32,000 nucleotides of DNA from Candidatus Lokiarchaeum ossiferum (GCA_025839675.1 CP104013.1:4410001-4442000); one strand, 5' to 3'. Counted from the first letter of the stretch, positions 6,902 to 12,340 are shown. Notes: generated by a model not told the origin, from the sequence alone. Numbers and translations are program-made.

Positions 6902-7092
6902 TCACATATACTATTTATTTCAGTGATCCCAAAACTCTTTATAAATTGCTTCACTAAAAGATTTAGAAATATTTTTGAAATGTTCTTAATATGTTTGATT
7001 TAATAGATTTCTTCCATATTTTTTATATAAGCGAAAAGTGTTACGTTTATACGATCGAAAAAACAATTTAATGCTTGCTAAGAGTGCAAAAC

Positions 7093-7686
7093 ATGTCAAA
7101 TATTGCCGAAACTGATGACCCGGAATCCATTAGATATCAATTTAAAATTGTTCTATTAGGTGATGGTGGTACTGGCAAAACGTGCCTTGTAAATCGGTAT
7201 TGTTTCAATGAATTTCTCGATACCAAACTTACCATTGGGCTATCCTTTAATTCTTATTCTATTCCCGCAGAAGAGAACGGAAAATCTTTTCGCATCGGAT
7301 TATCAATATGGGATTTTGGTGGTCAGGAACGTTTTAGACCGTTATTGCCACAATTCATTAGTGGGTGCAATGGGGCAATTTATGTATTTGATCAACTCGC
7401 GTTCCATTCGCTTGAAAATTTGCATAAAGAGTGGAAAAGCTTACTCCATTCAAATGCAGGAGAAGTGCCCTCTATATTAGTGGGTACAAAAGCAGATTTA
7501 ATTGATGAATCTCACTCCTTGATCGAGAAAGATACTTTGATGGAATATCAGCAGAATTTAGGAGTCTCGAGTTTTGTTAGTACTTCGGCGAAAACAGGTA
7601 AGAATATTAATGAAATTTTCAAACATTTGGTACGGGAAATTCTAAAAAAGTCACCCTTTGCCAAACGGAATATCATAATTCCCTAA
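7093..7686 (+). CDS. Small GTPase of the Ras superfamily, Rab-like
   Basis: G1 'LLGDGGTGKTCL', switch I 'TIGLSF', G3 'WDFGGQERF', G4 'VGTKADL', G5 'TSAKTG'. There is no C-terminal Cys prenylation motif (the protein ends ...NIIIP). ATG 7093 is preferred over the upstream TTG at 7075. Confidence 0.85.
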   Translation: MSNIAETDDPESIRYQFKIVLLGDGGTGKTCLVNRYCFNEFLDTKLTIGLSFNSYSIPAEENGKSFRIGLSIWDFGGQERFRPLLPQFISGCNGAIYVFDQLAFHSLENLHKEWKSLLHSNAGEVPSILVGTKADLIDESHSLIEKDTLMEYQQNLGVSSFVSTSAKTGKNINEIFKHLVREILKKSPFAKRNIIIP

Positions 7687-7700
7687 AAAGTGTTTTTTGC

Positions 7701-8489
7701 CTATTCTATAGCTTTTTCCCACATTCTTGAAAATAATTCGGTTAGAAACGTGACATAAGAAGTTGAATTGGAGCTAAAGATGGAGTATTCTAATTCTTTT
7801 GGTTTTGCAATGTTAAAATTACCCTTGATCAGCTGAATTCCAACGTTATCATCAGAAATGAGCACTCCTTGTTCTACATTTGGATAGAATTTGATGGTGC
7901 CATATTTCTTCAAAATACTGATAAATGATCGTTCTCGAAATCGTTCTTCAATGATTAAATGGGTTTCAATTCCTTTAGCACGAAGAAAATCAAGATTCAT
8001 TTTAATAATTGGAAATATTTCATTCATGTTTTTAATAAACGCTTTAATTGATCGATTAGTTCCATTCAGAACATTCCGAAAGTGATCCGTAGATGCTCTA
8101 TTGCCTTCATAAATCGTCAATTGTTCTTTTTTTGCTGGATGTTTTTCCCCAAACAATTGTTTTAGAAAGGGGAGGGAACAATCCATATTTTGTTGAAATT
8201 CAGTTTCTTGGGTTTTTTTTATATTTCCAAAAACTTCGGAAGGATCATTTCCAATAAATGTACTTGGGCGTCCTTCTAATTTTGTGATTATCCTTCGCTT
8301 AACCATATCATTTAACACTTCATAAATTCGGGAATAAGGAACACTTGTTAATTTACTTAACTCGTGGGCGTTCATTTCTCCAGAATCTAAAAGAGCAATG
8401 TAAATGTTGGTAAAATAATCTGTAAATCCTAAATTTTTCAAGGCACCACGAACATCAGAATCAATTTTAATATTTTTCCCTAATTTCAA
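7701..8489 (-). CDS. TrmB-family transcriptional regulator (N-terminal winged HTH plus C-terminal TrmB-like domain)
   Basis: 'LKNLGFTDYFTNIYIALLDSGEMNAHELSKLTSVPYSRIYEVLNDMVKRRII...EGRPSTF' is the typical TrmB wHTH. The TTG start overlaps the upstream stop (TTGA, 8486-8489). Confidence 0.8.
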   Translation of the reverse strand: MKLGKNIKIDSDVRGALKNLGFTDYFTNIYIALLDSGEMNAHELSKLTSVPYSRIYEVLNDMVKRRIITKLEGRPSTFIGNDPSEVFGNIKKTQETEFQQNMDCSLPFLKQLFGEKHPAKKEQLTIYEGNRASTDHFRNVLNGTNRSIKAFIKNMNEIFPIIKMNLDFLRAKGIETHLIIEERFRERSFISILKKYGTIKFYPNVEQGVLISDDNVGIQLIKGNFNIAKPKELEYSIFSSNSTSYVTFLTELFSRMWEKAIE

Positions 8490-9205
8490 AAGTTTTCACC
8501 TGTATATATTTTTGATAATTCATTATCCATTAATTCTAGCGCAAATTCGTAAAGCCTTCGCATGTATTTCCAGTCTCGGATGTTCCATGTTGGTTTATAA
8601 AATGGGATATTGATAGCATCTAAATTTCGTTCAAAACAATCAATCATTTGATCAAAAATGGATAAAACTGCATCTAAAGCTTCTTGACATAATTCTTTCG
8701 TGGCATACTTTTTACGAATTAATTCAGATACAAATTTTACATCTGGTTCATTGCAGTTAATAAATCGAGTTGCTTGGATGATTGAAATTCGATAGGTAAG
8801 CCGACTAATTAATTCTAACTCACTTCGGATGGGATGAGAGGAAGATGTGTGTTTCAAACTCCAATCTACATTCGCGTATTCAGCAAAAGTTTTTTTAACT
8901 TTTTCATCTAAAAAGTCCGGATCAATTAAATCATCTTCAATATGGTTGAGACATTCAACAGCAGAATTCAAAACAATACGAATCTGAGTTTTCCCTTTTC
9001 GTCTAATATAATCCTTCAAAATATAGTCGTAATAATTATTTGCGGTAAATTCTAAGAAGCTAGAATCTGAGTTTTCTTTAACATATATCCTTCGCAGAAA
9101 ATCTAACCCGGAGTCTAGAAGATTAATGAGGTAGTGGCGAATCAGGTTATAATTACGTTTAATGATAGGATCTGGGATATCGATAATTAAGGGATTTGAG
9201 GACAT
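8486..9205 (-). CDS. Hypothetical, predicted all-helical protein containing a DDLID (DDxxD) motif
   Basis: 239-aa ORF with a 4-nt overlap onto the TrmB gene. It contains 'NHIEDDLIDPDF'. I recognise no family. Confidence 0.5.
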   Translation of the reverse strand: MSSNPLIIDIPDPIIKRNYNLIRHYLINLLDSGLDFLRRIYVKENSDSSFLEFTANNYYDYILKDYIRRKGKTQIRIVLNSAVECLNHIEDDLIDPDFLDEKVKKTFAEYANVDWSLKHTSSSHPIRSELELISRLTYRISIIQATRFINCNEPDVKFVSELIRKKYATKELCQEALDAVLSIFDQMIDCFERNLDAINIPFYKPTWNIRDWKYMRRLYEFALELMDNELSKIYTGENF

Positions 9206-9291
9206 AATAATGACTTGGGTAAATTAATTGGAAGATCAGTTTTTTTAGAGAGGTAAGATTGCAAAATATTTGCTAATAAAAAAGATTTTTC

Positions 9292-10365
9292 CTAACTATT
9301 TGTGATGTAAGTTAGGAGTTGACCATAAAAAGCCATGGAATCATTGCGTAATCCAGGATAAATTTGTTTTAATGAGTTGTAAACTTCATTTATCAAACTT
9401 TTGGAATACATTTCTGCAAAATTTGTTGCTCCTGTTGTCTGATAGATCTCTCGCACTACTTGAAGTTGATCATTAGTTGCTTTTGGATTCCCTAAAATTT
9501 CATTTAATTGTGTTTTTTGTTCTTGGTTAGCATTTTGATATGAAATAATTGTTAAGATTGTTGATTGCCCACTTTTTATATCATGATCGATAGAGTGCAG
9601 TTTTGGATCTCCGAATGTGCCATTGATATCATTCTGTATTTGTTCAACAATTCCTACTTTATTCATAGCCTCCATTAATGGTTTCATCTGAGATTTGCGT
9701 GCATTTCCAAAAATAGCCCCTAAGGCAACTGCTGTTTCCATTTGTTTTGCTCGTTTATCTGCTAAGATAAGATAATTTTCCAGGGTGATCTTATCAAGAG
9801 AAATCTCTCGTTTATAATATTCGTCTAACAAATTACTCCGAGTAACTCCTGCTAAACCCGATAAATAAACTTGAAGTGCCTTTGATTTACGCTTATGATC
9901 GAACTTACTATCGGTGATGATTTTTGAACCAAAGATCGATGTTAGATTTCCTCCATAGATTGCGGATGCTGTCTCGTAATTTTCTCCATTATTGTGCTTT
10001 TTTGTAAATTTTTCTCCCATAAACCGATGAAAAGTTTTCTTTCCTCGTCTGAATTCTTCTTGATCAATTAAATCATCCAACATTAGATTGGAAATGTGCA
10101 TTAACTCAATCGCAATGCTGACTTGGTATATTTGTTCTGCATTATCTAATATATTTCTCTCGGAACTAATACCTTTGAACGTTTCTATCAAACTAATTGG
10201 GTGAAGTCTTCTTCCTCCTTGAATCACAAATTGAGATCCATAGGTAAGAAATTCTCTCAAAAATGGTTCTTCTTCTAATTCAATTGCCTTTTTATAAAAA
10301 TTTTGAATAAGTAGATCAATTTTTTTCTTTTCTTTCTTCAAATGTTTAGCAAATTCCACATCCAT
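9292..10365 (-). CDS. trans-Polyprenyl diphosphate synthase homolog (GGPPS/FPPS superfamily) with an intact first and a degenerate second Asp-rich motif
   Basis: FARM 'LMLDDLIDQEEFRRGKKTFH' lies at 10063-10077. The SARM position reads 'EQIQNDINGTFGDPK...DIKSGQSTILTI' (NDING at 9619-9633) instead of DDxxD. ATG 10365 is preceded by a GGGGG Shine-Dalgarno-like run. Confidence 0.75.
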   Translation of the reverse strand: MDVEFAKHLKKEKKKIDLLIQNFYKKAIELEEEPFLREFLTYGSQFVIQGGRRLHPISLIETFKGISSERNILDNAEQIYQVSIAIELMHISNLMLDDLIDQEEFRRGKKTFHRFMGEKFTKKHNNGENYETASAIYGGNLTSIFGSKIITDSKFDHKRKSKALQVYLSGLAGVTRSNLLDEYYKREISLDKITLENYLILADKRAKQMETAVALGAIFGNARKSQMKPLMEAMNKVGIVEQIQNDINGTFGDPKLHSIDHDIKSGQSTILTIISYQNANQEQKTQLNEILGNPKATNDQLQVVREIYQTTGATNFAEMYSKSLINEVYNSLKQIYPGLRNDSMAFYGQLLTYITNS

Positions 10366-10445
10366 CAATTTTCCCCCTAAATTATCCTATACTATTAAAT
10401 AGCCAAAGAAACCTTAAAGAGTATTGATATAATCTCGAAAAAAAA

Positions 10446-11360
10446 TTATAACCCTCGGAAATATTCTGGTTTCAAAGATTGAGGGTTCTTTATTCCTTGA
10501 TCAATAGTAGTCAACAATTTTTGTTTGTCTTTGGAAAGGATTCCTTTCAACGGAAGATAATTGGATGCATGATTGGCTCGAAAAATGCAACCGTTCAGAT
10601 CATCCGATATGTTTTCAATTATCATTCTTAATTCTTCCAAAATTTGAAAGCTACTCATGGGGTGTAATTTGTGAGATAGAACTTCTTGTTCTATCGGTGT
10701 TCCTGGAGGGATCATCAAGGTTAGTGCCGAAATATACCATGTTGTTGGCGAAAGTGGATTCATGTGATTAATTAATTCCGCTGTCTTAATTGCATGTCGA
10801 CGGCTTTCTTGTTCATTACTTCCTGCTAATCCTAATATAATTGTTCCGCTAAAAACAATTCCTGCTCTATGACATTTTTGAGCAGCTTTTGCCAATTCTT
10901 CTGCATTAGTGCGCTTTTTTATTCGGTCTAGTAGGATATCATCACCCGTTTCAATTCCTACGTATACCATATTTAATCCTGATTGAGCGATTTTTCTTAA
11001 ATCCTCATCTGATTTTCGATTAATATCCTTCGCATGTGCATAAGCACTAATCCGTTGCAAATTTGGGTGAATCTTATAGCCATATTCAGAAATTTCAATG
11101 AGATCTGCTGGTTTCATCACAAAAGCATTCCCATCCAATAGAAAAATTCGTTCGATTTGATTTTTATACAGAATTTTTGCAGTTTCAATGTCCTTTTTGA
11201 TATCAAAAACATCACGAATTGCAAATTTTTTATCCTTGTAAGGGTAGCAGTAGGTACACTTGAAGGAACATCCAATAGTTGCAGTTAATAAAAGAGATTT
11301 TTTTCCTTCGGAAGGAGGTCGATAAACTGGTTCACTATAAAACAATTCTGGAGGGGTCAC
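10446..11360 (-). CDS. Radical SAM domain protein, specific function unknown
   Basis: CxxxCxxC cluster motif 'GCSFKCTYCYP', an N-terminal 'YRPPSEG', a 'GIETGDD' TIM-barrel core and a C-terminal 'RANHASNYLPLKG'. GTG start, with no nearby Met. Confidence 0.75.
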   Translation of the reverse strand: MTPPELFYSEPVYRPPSEGKKSLLLTATIGCSFKCTYCYPYKDKKFAIRDVFDIKKDIETAKILYKNQIERIFLLDGNAFVMKPADLIEISEYGYKIHPNLQRISAYAHAKDINRKSDEDLRKIAQSGLNMVYVGIETGDDILLDRIKKRTNAEELAKAAQKCHRAGIVFSGTIILGLAGSNEQESRRHAIKTAELINHMNPLSPTTWYISALTLMIPPGTPIEQEVLSHKLHPMSSFQILEELRMIIENISDDLNGCIFRANHASNYLPLKGILSKDKQKLLTTIDQGIKNPQSLKPEYFRGL

Positions 11361-11485
11361 AAACTAGTTAAATCCATTAAAACCAAAAAATTTTTTTTAA
11401 ATGGCACTTTTTTTTTTTACACCGGTCTTTATTTTACGATTACGATTATTAACATTGAACTTATGTAATTTTTAGAGTGTGTAAA

Positions 11486-12340
11486 ATGGCAAAAAAAGCA
11501 TCTAAATCCAAGAAAAATATTCGAACAATTGCGTGTAAACACCTCGAATCCATTAACGCGGTAAGCAATGCGGGAAACCCTCTTTGTTACTGTTCCAAAC
11601 GTGAATTTACGATTTCTCCTTATAATTTAGTTTGTCAAGTTTGTGATATCTATAAACCAAACCCTCAAGATATATCTCATGCTGAAATGTATGTGGCAGA
11701 TGATGCTGGGGATTTTGAATATAGCATTGATGATATCGAAATTAGCGATGATGATTTTGAATCTGAACCCGATATCGAAGAAGATGAAGAATTTGATGAT
11801 ATTCCTGTAAAGAAGAAGAAAACTAAAAAAGCCGCTCCTGTCACCGAAGAGGATGATGATGAAGACATCGAAATAGAAAAAGTAGTTGAAGAAGAAGATG
11901 ATGTCGGAATTGTTATTGGACTCGAGAAAGAAGAAGAAGAAGAAGAACTCGATTATGTGGACGAGCGCGAAGAAGGATTGGGTAAGAAACACGGGACTCT
12001 TGGAAAGGATGACGACGAAGAAGAAGAAGAAGAAGAACTTGATGAGGAGTTAGATGATTTAGATGATGAATTTGATTCTGCCAATTCTTCTGCTGATGAT
12101 GGGGATGATGATAGTGATGATGAGGATGATGATTACGATTTTGAGGAAGAGGTCATCGCCAAAATCAAAACAATCGGTGATAAAGAAATTTGTCCATTCT
12201 GCCAAAAATCAAAAGTATCCGTTTTACGTCATATTACAAAGTGTAAACGAGCCCCTGCCGAAGCGATCGCCGCTTATGCAAAATATAAAACCAAGAAAAA
12301 GAAAACAACTCGCAAAAAGAAAACTACTGCGAAAAAGTAA
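11486..12340 (+). CDS. Zinc-finger / polyacidic / lysine-rich-tail protein (possible chromatin or chaperone-like protein)
   Basis: Basic N-terminus (MAKKASKSKK). Cys cluster C..CYC..CQVC. About 170 aa of D/E-rich low complexity. A C-x2-C-x9-H-x3-C finger (CPFCQKSKVSVLRHITKC, 12191-12244). The tail is KYKTKKKKTTRKKKTTAKK. Confidence 0.6.
   Translation: MAKKASKSKKNIRTIACKHLESINAVSNAGNPLCYCSKREFTISPYNLVCQVCDIYKPNPQDISHAEMYVADDAGDFEYSIDDIEISDDDFESEPDIEEDEEFDDIPVKKKKTKKAAPVTEEDDDEDIEIEKVVEEEDDVGIVIGLEKEEEEEELDYVDEREEGLGKKHGTLGKDDDEEEEEEELDEELDDLDDEFDSANSSADDGDDDSDDEDDDYDFEEEVIAKIKTIGDKEICPFCQKSKVSVLRHITKCKRAPAEAIAAYAKYKTKKKKTTRKKKTTAKK
11930..11947 (+). repeat. (GAA)6 trinucleotide repeat in frame (EEEEEE)
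   Basis: Counted directly in the acidic-protein CDS. Confidence 0.9.
12017..12037 (+). repeat. (GAA)7 trinucleotide repeat in frame (EEEEEEE)
   Basis: Counted directly in the acidic-protein CDS. Confidence 0.9.

Follow-up and report, generated by a model that had tools for sequence, protein, structure and literature searches.

The four-gene cluster and its described counterparts

Short-chain trans-isoprenyl diphosphate synthases (trans-IDSs), among them the geranylgeranyl diphosphate (GGPP) synthases of PDB entries 3lk5 and 1wy0, carry a first aspartate-rich motif DDxxD...RRG, a second motif DDxx(D/G) and the lysine of a conserved EGK segment. Altered-motif enzymes have been derived in eukaryotes by duplication of an elongating IDS. 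Chrysanthemyl diphosphate synthase has an NDxxD motif (10.1101/169417), insect IDS-derived terpene synthases have non-aromatic residues at positions -4/-5 and in some cases substitutions in the second motif (PMC6140472), and termite farnesyl diphosphate synthase-like proteins have disrupted motifs (PMC13143122). Fungal IDS-like terpene synthases belong to the same group. Other described systems comparable with the locus studied here are the heteromeric prenyl synthases, the regulators TrmB and TrmBL2 (PDB 3qph, 5bqt), and the class B (B12-dependent) radical S-adenosylmethionine (SAM) enzymes. The locus is a cluster of four genes in the genome of Candidatus Lokiarchaeum ossiferum. It was analysed within a window of 32,000 nucleotides, positions 4410001-4442000 of the 6,035,313-bp single-contig genome.

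The four genes lie on the minus strand in the order rSAM-A, IDS-2, H239 and TrmB-like gene. They are separated by 77 nt and 86 nt, and the last two genes share a 4-nt TTGA overlap. The coordinates of the open reading frames (Table 1) establish this anatomy and agree in every detail with the preliminary description of the window, in which the cluster was regarded as a possible uncharacterised isoprenoid pathway. Its assignment of a radical SAM enzyme, a prenyl synthase and a TrmB-type regulator was confirmed by Pfam matches above the respective cut-offs: 71.5 bits for PF04055 Radical_SAM (cut-off 29.5), 109.8 bits for PF00348 polyprenyl_synt (cut-off 27) and 52.1 bits for PF01978 TrmB (cut-off 25.6). 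In NCBIfam, only sub-threshold matches were obtained for these three proteins. A literature search yielded nothing specific on this gene combination in Asgard archaea or on the lipids of Lokiarchaeum. We propose that the cluster is specific to the Promethearchaeaceae and was assembled in steps, three evolutionary units having come together on a conserved Lokiarchaeales synteny backbone. Its core would be the H239-TrmB pair, joined by a neofunctionalised IDS paralogue. The probability of this reading is estimated at roughly 45%.

Gene order in related genomes and the H239-TrmB pair

The order rSAM, IDS-2, H239, TrmB-like was found in all seven other loci examined in family f1, the window's own family Promethearchaeaceae (f2, f3 and f4 denote other families). 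These loci come from the genera g5, g6 (Promethearchaeum) and g7, and Promethearchaeum syntrophicum is among them. A loss of synteny in relatives, named in the preliminary description as evidence against a pathway, was thus not observed within the family. Fragmentary contigs of the window's own genus (G001) agree with the four-gene order. Across the family loci, the rSAM-IDS spacing is 59-111 nt, the IDS-H239 spacing -4 to 165 nt and the H239-TrmB spacing -26 to +3 nt (the last in eight orthologous loci). In the genera g1, g5 and g7, unrelated flanking genes are syntenic too, with RlmN, metallophosphoesterase and acidic zinc-finger genes on one side and Ras, DRG, orf176 and MBL genes on the other. 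In g6 the four genes are intact though both flanks differ, and the IDS-2-H239 gap can shrink there to between -4 and 6 nt (L014, L019). As the four genes lie on a longer conserved backbone of unrelated genes, their conservation alone says less than it seems to.

Other arrangements point to the order in which the cluster was assembled. In family f3, a left block consists of rSAM-A, acidic zinc-finger, JAB/TPR, split TPP enzyme, CoA-transferase III and metallophosphoesterase genes. The right block, which follows the metallophosphoesterase gene, consists of IDS-2, Ras, rSAM-B (a 35-40% paralogue) and IMPDH. Judged by gene order, the f1 arrangement is what a single inversion of the left block would yield. 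In g3, rSAM-A and IDS-2 are 6-10 kb apart. In g4, IDS-2 (with the motif NDIQG), H239 and the TrmB-like gene are contiguous, and rSAM-A is on another contig. IDS-2 and rSAM-A are also on separate contigs in g2, where the contig carrying IDS-2 is short and breaks off at that gene. These comparisons establish the assembly order. In the most parsimonious history, the H239-TrmB pair would be the oldest unit. IDS-2 would have joined it early in family f1, and rSAM-A would have been brought beside IDS-2 by inversion of the flanking block in the crown genera only.

The H239-TrmB pair occurs with no adjacent IDS-2 or radical SAM gene in f2 (L020) and in f4 (L025, L039, G020:C31). The 4-nt overlap is also present in f4, and no IDS-2-like match was found in the f4 genomes G016 and G018. 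In genus g3, no H239 match was found and the best TrmB match reaches 29% only, so that the two genes are absent together there. The conserved partner of H239 is the TrmB-like gene, with or without a synthase nearby. The overlap of the stop and start codons implies that the two genes are translationally coupled. H239-TrmB is the only demonstrably coupled pair in the cluster.

H239 has no match in Pfam, NCBIfam, PADLOC or the PDB sequences. A profile of its family gave no match in Pfam and matched only a designed coiled coil in the PDB. There are 27 close homologues among 5.8 billion clusters, and a profile search found 40 representatives among 1.84 billion proteins. The AlphaFold2 (AF2) model is all-helical, with a predicted local distance difference test score (pLDDT) of 85.6 and a predicted template modelling score (pTM) of 0.84. 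H239 had been described as a helical protein of no known family, and both parts of this statement hold. A Foldseek search of the PDB with the model gave no fold match (best E 0.9, template modelling (TM) score <=0.30). A terpene-synthase or IDS fold was considered and rejected, the matches 5ern and 8x9c having E >1 and a TM score of 0.2. Given the lack of a fold or sequence match, H239 cannot be recognised as a small subunit of a prenyl synthase or as a terpene synthase. The locus resembles the heteromeric prenyl synthases (HepS/HepT, HexA/HexB, large and small subunits of geranyl diphosphate synthase) in that an IDS-family gene lies directly beside the gene of a small helical protein, and in Promethearchaeum the two open reading frames may overlap by 4 nt. 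H239 differs from HepS, HexA and the small subunits, however: it is similar to them neither in fold nor in sequence, it is coupled to TrmB, and in other families it is present where no IDS accompanies it. A role of H239 as a subunit of a heteromeric prenyl synthase thus finds no support.

The pentapeptide DDLID, which had drawn attention to H239, is indeed present in both H239 and IDS-2, but it is not shared beyond chance. When H239 was shuffled 20,000 times, one or more 5-mers in common with IDS-2 arose in 7.6% of the sequences and a DDxxD in 11%. In 22 H239 orthologues the corresponding column is variable (DDE-IID, GHEVID, KGSVIE, KANRID etc.), and, apart from the query, DDLID occurs in only one or two close relatives. 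DDLID was rejected as a catalytic motif common to the two proteins, since it is not conserved and is expected by chance. A class I terpene synthase was rejected as well, since H239 has no conserved DDxxD metal-binding motif. The columns invariant in the 22 orthologues are D189, E192, I200, P201, F202, Y203, K204, P205, T206 and R210, and the IPFYKPT loop among them is the low-confidence part of the AF2 model.

Distant H239 paralogues (~22-27% identity; L021-L024, L026) occur in f3 as tandem pairs in a different context. Their neighbours encode a protein of 1,100-1,250 aa whose N-terminus is GTPase-like, a ~350-aa membrane protein and an alpha/beta-hydrolase. In L024, a gene for a winged helix-turn-helix (wHTH) protein is located directly upstream.

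The TrmB-like protein matches PF01978 with residues 17-78. Its residues 9-176 match PDB 3qph (TrmB) at E 2.5e-10, and the match to TrmBL2 is weak. It resembles TrmB and TrmBL2 in the N-terminal wHTH and the following helix, and its 262 aa correspond to the length of TrmBL2. In contrast to these regulators, it shows no match to the sugar-binding C-terminal effector domain of TrmB, it reaches only 52 bits against the NCBIfam TrmB cut-off of 600, and it has an obligatory orphan partner gene. No Pfam domain was found in its C-terminal half, and the 3qph alignment ends at residue 176 of 262.

Table 1. Features of the cluster and its immediate neighbours, with coordinates in the window.
Feature	Coordinates	Strand	Profile or remark
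rSAM-A, stand-alone radical SAM core enzyme, 304 aa	10446..11360	-	PF04055
CxxxCxxC [4Fe-4S]/SAM-binding motif of rSAM-A, C31 S F K C35 T Y C38	11247..11270	-	read from sequence
IDS-2, divergent second trans-isoprenyl diphosphate synthase paralogue, 358 aa	9292..10368	-	PF00348
First Asp-rich motif of IDS-2, DDLID, residues 98-102, then RRG	10063..10077	-	
Altered second Asp-rich motif of IDS-2, NDING, residues 246-250	9619..9633	-	SGQ downstream in place of the usual EGK
H239, orphan all-helical protein, 239 aa, partner of the TrmB-like gene	8486..9205	-	
DDLID pentapeptide of H239, residues 91-95	8921..8935	-	chance motif
Conserved block of H239, DQMIDCFER...IPFYKPTWNIRD, residues 185-211	8573..8653	-	
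TrmB-like transcription regulator, 262 aa, N-terminal winged helix-turn-helix	7701..8489	-	PF01978
TTGA, H239 stop codon (TGA) overlapping the TrmB-like start codon (TTG)	8486..8489	-	
Acidic zinc-finger protein gene, divergent from rSAM-A	11477..12340	+	most persistent rSAM-A neighbour
Ras-like small GTPase gene, convergent with the TrmB-like gene	7075..7686	+	PF00071, 116 bits

Features of IDS-2 and rSAM-A

Residues 46-305 of IDS-2 cover positions 10-247 of the 251 positions of the PF00348 profile. Against the NCBIfam equivalogs it scores <=100 bits, with cut-offs of 275-600. The protein would have 357 aa if the ATG at 10365 were its start. IDS-2 resembles the short-chain trans-IDSs in its homology over the whole length (E 3.9e-19 to 3lk5), the DDxxD...RRG motif, the length and the helical core. 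It differs from them in having NDxxG instead of DDxx(D/G), a glutamine for the lysine of EGK and non-aromatic residues at -4/-5, and in not being the housekeeping copy. The first motif, DDx2-4D followed by RRG, is intact (DDLIDQEEFRRG, residues 98-109). The residues -4 and -5 before it are Asn and Ser, where the canonical synthase of the genome has Phe at -5. The second motif, NDING, aligns to DDLLG of PDB 3lk5 and to DDILG of the canonical synthase of the same genome. It does not carry both leading aspartates and thus does not belong to the forms DDxxD, DDxxG or DDxxN. The conserved lysine of the (E)GK(x)T segment is also absent, SGQST being aligned with EGKKT. A synthase with only one intact Asp-rich motif was also what the preliminary description had reported.

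All 42 full-length relatives from the family in the alignment (E < 1e-80) carry NDxxG, and the invariance of its asparagine argues for a remodelled rather than a decaying site. Across lineages the second motif forms a series, with DDILD in f3, NDIND in g2 and g3, NDIQG in g4, and NDxxG in all H239-linked genera. The first motif is kept in most IDS-2 orthologues and altered in some (DDLVE, EDDLIG, INDLIG, EDIVD), and RRG is replaced in some by RHG, RSG, RAG, RYG or HRG. Close relatives of IDS-2, 44 proteins including one from Promethearchaeum syntrophicum, are confined to the same archaeal family. The orthologues are 46-62% identical across genera, and at every locus examined they are full length and free of stops. 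The f3 orthologues share 32-35% identity with IDS-2. They (L030-L036, L040, L041) are atypical in a different way: DDILD is kept, and ~12 residues after it (the FGxxxxxGK loop) are deleted.

The genome contains two PF00348 genes. The canonical copy (236.6 bits) is located ~200 kb from IDS-2, upstream of the window (G000:C1:4207000-4222000), in a mevalonate operon with the genes for mevalonate kinase, isopentenyl phosphate kinase and IDI-2. Cis-prenyltransferase and UbiA-type genes are found beside this operon. The canonical copy is the housekeeping GGPP synthase, and its position in the mevalonate operon makes IDS-2 a spare paralogue. Since the second motif of the canonical synthase is DDILG, the third aspartate is dispensable in this lineage. 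Like the altered-motif enzymes described above, IDS-2 has been duplicated from an elongating IDS. It shares the asparagine in place of the first aspartate of the second motif with chrysanthemyl diphosphate synthase (10.1101/169417), and the non-aromatic residues at -4/-5 with the insect and termite IDS-like enzymes, some of which also have second-motif substitutions (PMC6140472, PMC13143122). These enzymes are eukaryotic and have no specific sequence relationship to IDS-2, which has a glycine at the third motif position. An isoprenoid-related role for IDS-2 is plausible.

The radical SAM enzyme rSAM-A begins 30 residues before its cluster motif, and the cysteines C31, C35 and C38 are invariant in 27 homologues. 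PF04055 and Fer4_12 are the only domains found in it; neither a B12-binding domain (PF02310) nor a recognised auxiliary-cluster domain was detected. The NCBIfam matches are partial and far below threshold, with 15-58 bits to PhpK, HpnJ and similar cores, for which the cut-offs are 360-650. The tetraether lipid synthase Tes (NF045702) gave 15.3 bits against a cut-off of 450, which places rSAM-A outside this family. No match was found among the PDB sequences. The AF2 model (pLDDT 89.9) has its best Foldseek match in MgmA (9ccb; TM score 0.59, 16% identity), and the nearest structures, MgmA, AprD4, MiaB and TsrM, have TM scores of 0.5-0.6 at 16-20% identity. A partial TIM barrel is supported by 163 PDB matches at E < 0.001, the best 50 of which are all radical SAM enzymes. 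The closest profile and fold similarity of the rSAM-A core is thus to MgmA and the class B enzymes HpnJ, HpnR and the ladderane radical SAM enzyme. Unlike the class B enzymes, rSAM-A lacks the B12-binding domain and has only 304 aa, and its identity to them is 16-20%. A B12 domain in longer radical SAM frames of f4 (402-442 aa) was rejected as an artefact that arises from the long open frames of a high-GC genome. NCBIfam, PDB sequence and Foldseek searches did not place rSAM-A in a characterised family unrelated to isoprenoids, an outcome that would have spoken against the pathway proposed initially.

The rSAM-A family is broad and uncharacterised. It comprises 2907 homologues, with 53-57% identity in Odinarchaeia, other Promethearchaeota and some bacteria, and is present in 86 of the 151 sampled Asgard genomes. 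Elsewhere, the neighbours of the family are a HAD hydrolase gene with a zinc-ribbon gene, DUF362 genes beside tandem copies, and Ras-like GTPase genes; a synthase gene is not among them. In ~35 non-Loki Asgard genomes with both gene types, the rSAM and prenyl-synthase genes are far apart or on different contigs, among the matches listed.

The acidic zinc-finger gene adjoins rSAM-A or lies within ~2.4 kb of it in f1, f3 and f4. Depending on the lineage, it is divergent from, convergent with or co-directional with rSAM-A. The encoded proteins have the common N-terminal motif CKHLE...C.C..R(D/E)...YVCQVC and may be a functional partner or a substrate of rSAM-A. Apart from the gene in the window, acidic zinc-finger genes are located at L030:4767-5468, L037:4930-5772 and L056:1945-2712, all on the minus strand. 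The Ras-like gene on the other side of the cluster is part of the order-wide synteny backbone flanking IDS-2 and adjoins IDS-2 in f3 too. A Ras-like small GTPase gene also stands divergently beside an rSAM-family gene in three of five loci of another Asgard family, f9 (L060, L066, L068), and in the f3 loci L030, L033, L035 and L041 a Ras gene (-) stands beside rSAM-B (+). Small GTPases are numerous in Asgard genomes, and this adjacency could be due to chance. On contigs of Odinarchaeota and Promethearchaeota (L048:6001-9453; L049:6821-8915), two or three 304-aa rSAM copies form tandem arrays beside the gene of a ~800-aa DUF362 protein.

The transcription signals in the cluster are ambiguous. 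Within the window, the rSAM stop codon is followed by a T8 run and the IDS-2 stop codon by a T6 run; such runs are not conserved in all loci. TATA-like boxes precede the IDS-2 and H239 genes, and Shine-Dalgarno-like sequences precede IDS-2. A scan for sigma-70 promoters and intrinsic terminators, which uses bacterial models not applicable to archaea, found 20 promoters against 21.3 expected in shuffles and no terminators. By eye, no conserved palindromic operator common to all was seen in three intergenic regions of eight loci. A palindromic A8T6 element (TTTAAAAAAAATTTTTT) at ~11383-11402 of the window, ~40 nt upstream of the rSAM start, recurs at L017, L018 and L019 and is probably the TATA and B recognition element (BRE) region common to the divergent rSAM-A and acidic zinc-finger promoters. 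In g6, a conserved element of ~45 nt, GGGTTTCCATT.TGC.TGGA.AATCTC.TATAAAAATCCA, follows the TrmB-like gene (L014 ~9160-9205, L016, L018, L019). It is absent from the window and might represent a small RNA or the terminal part of a convergent gene.

Interpretation of the cluster

According to the proposed stepwise assembly, the H239-TrmB pair is most likely a two-protein transcription switch, in which H239 would sense a signal or modulate the DNA-binding regulator. In IDS-2, the Mg-binding second motif would have been remodelled by the asparagine in place of the first aspartate, together with the glutamine in place of the diphosphate-binding lysine. The protein would still bind an allylic prenyl diphosphate via its intact first motif, and ordinary chain elongation has probably been lost. 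Its role would be either irregular or terpene-synthase-like chemistry, or that of a non-catalytic subunit which binds or modulates prenyl diphosphates. We infer that the regulator pair may control or respond to IDS-2 and that rSAM-A may act on the same metabolite.

Several observations weigh against this proposal. The unrelated flanks (Ras, DRG, metallophosphoesterase, RlmN, acidic zinc-finger) are likewise syntenic in g1, g5 and g7, and the adjacency of its genes could therefore be neutrally inherited. The T-runs and TATA-like boxes would allow three separate transcripts. That NDxxG and H239 go together may trace back to one ancestral event, and the changes in the first motif of some IDS-2 members could mean loss of function and not new chemistry.

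According to a different explanation, the genes beyond H239-TrmB are functionally unrelated neighbours on an unusually stable chromosomal block. IDS-2 would then work with unlinked partners, for example by modulating the canonical GGPP synthase, and rSAM-A with a different partner, possibly the acidic zinc-finger protein. The co-conservation of the whole backbone, orf176 and MBL included, which extends partly to f3, is consistent with this explanation, as is the adjacency of rSAM-A and the acidic zinc-finger gene, which is wider than that of rSAM and IDS and survives changes of orientation; the intergenic signals would permit separate promoters. However, the four genes stay together in g6 despite the changed flanks, the IDS-2-H239 gap shrinks to -4 to 6 nt in L014 and L019, and the second motif changed to NDxxG at the point where H239 arrived. 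On balance, neutral synteny appears somewhat unlikely.

The isoprenoid pathway suggested at the outset regards the four genes as one operon-like unit, in which a prenyl chain would be made by IDS-2, perhaps assisted by H239 as a subunit without catalytic activity. The radical SAM enzyme would then alter this chain (methylation, cyclisation or C-C coupling), and the operon would be under the control of the TrmB-like protein. The part of this suggestion that has stood is the kept synteny, found in eight of eight crown-group loci even with the rearranged flanks of g6, together with the atypical IDS-2 and the uncharacterised radical SAM enzyme. In f3, the IDS-2 orthologue lies within 1-2 kb of rSAM-B and 6-10 kb from rSAM-A, so that in two families IDS-2 has a member of this radical SAM family close by. 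The profiles to which the rSAM core is weakly similar are those of lipid and hopanoid B12-type enzymes (HpnJ, ladderane rSAM, HpnR, Tes). The other arguments mostly failed. H239 has no prenyl-synthase fold, shares DDLID by chance and pairs with TrmB, also where IDS-2 is missing in f2 and f4. rSAM-A is separate from IDS-2 in g4, and in g2 the two genes lie on separate short contigs. Members of the radical SAM family show no general connection with isoprenoids, nor with prenyl synthases in the ~35 non-Loki genomes and in their other contexts, and the NCBIfam scores of rSAM-A are far below the cut-offs. In f3, the interval from rSAM-A to IDS-2 is filled by unrelated housekeeping genes, and unrelated neighbours share much of the conservation of the cluster. 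A single four-gene pathway is therefore regarded as unlikely.

A more specific form of a shared metabolism can be formulated for Lokiarchaeum and Promethearchaeum. The NDxxG IDS paralogue would make a non-canonical (irregular, cyclised or non-elongated) prenyl product, the B12-less radical SAM enzyme would modify it, and the H239 and TrmB-like pair would sense it. This scheme is speculative, and we consider it improbable in its entirety. That IDS-2 has lost every role and is decaying as a pseudo-enzyme is very improbable: the first aspartate of the second motif and the lysine of EGK are lost, and some orthologues have also lost first-motif aspartates or RRG, but the orthologues remain full length and well conserved across genera, and the (near-)invariance of the asparagine and SGQ points to purifying selection on the changed site.

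If the genes are merely unrelated neighbours, the finding is an ordinary one. The H239-TrmB pair is in itself an orphan two-gene regulatory module restricted to the Lokiarchaeales, and rSAM-A belongs to a large, highly conserved and uncharacterised radical SAM family, whose archaeal and bacterial members share >50% identity. Both Lokiarchaeia in culture, Lokiarchaeum and Promethearchaeum, carry the cluster, which makes it testable at the bench. To our knowledge, the conversion of an elongating prenyl synthase to another function has so far been documented in plants, insects and fungi. If IDS-2 does have a new chemistry, it would be the first archaeal elongating prenyl synthase turned to another use, and it may lead to an unknown Asgard isoprenoid.

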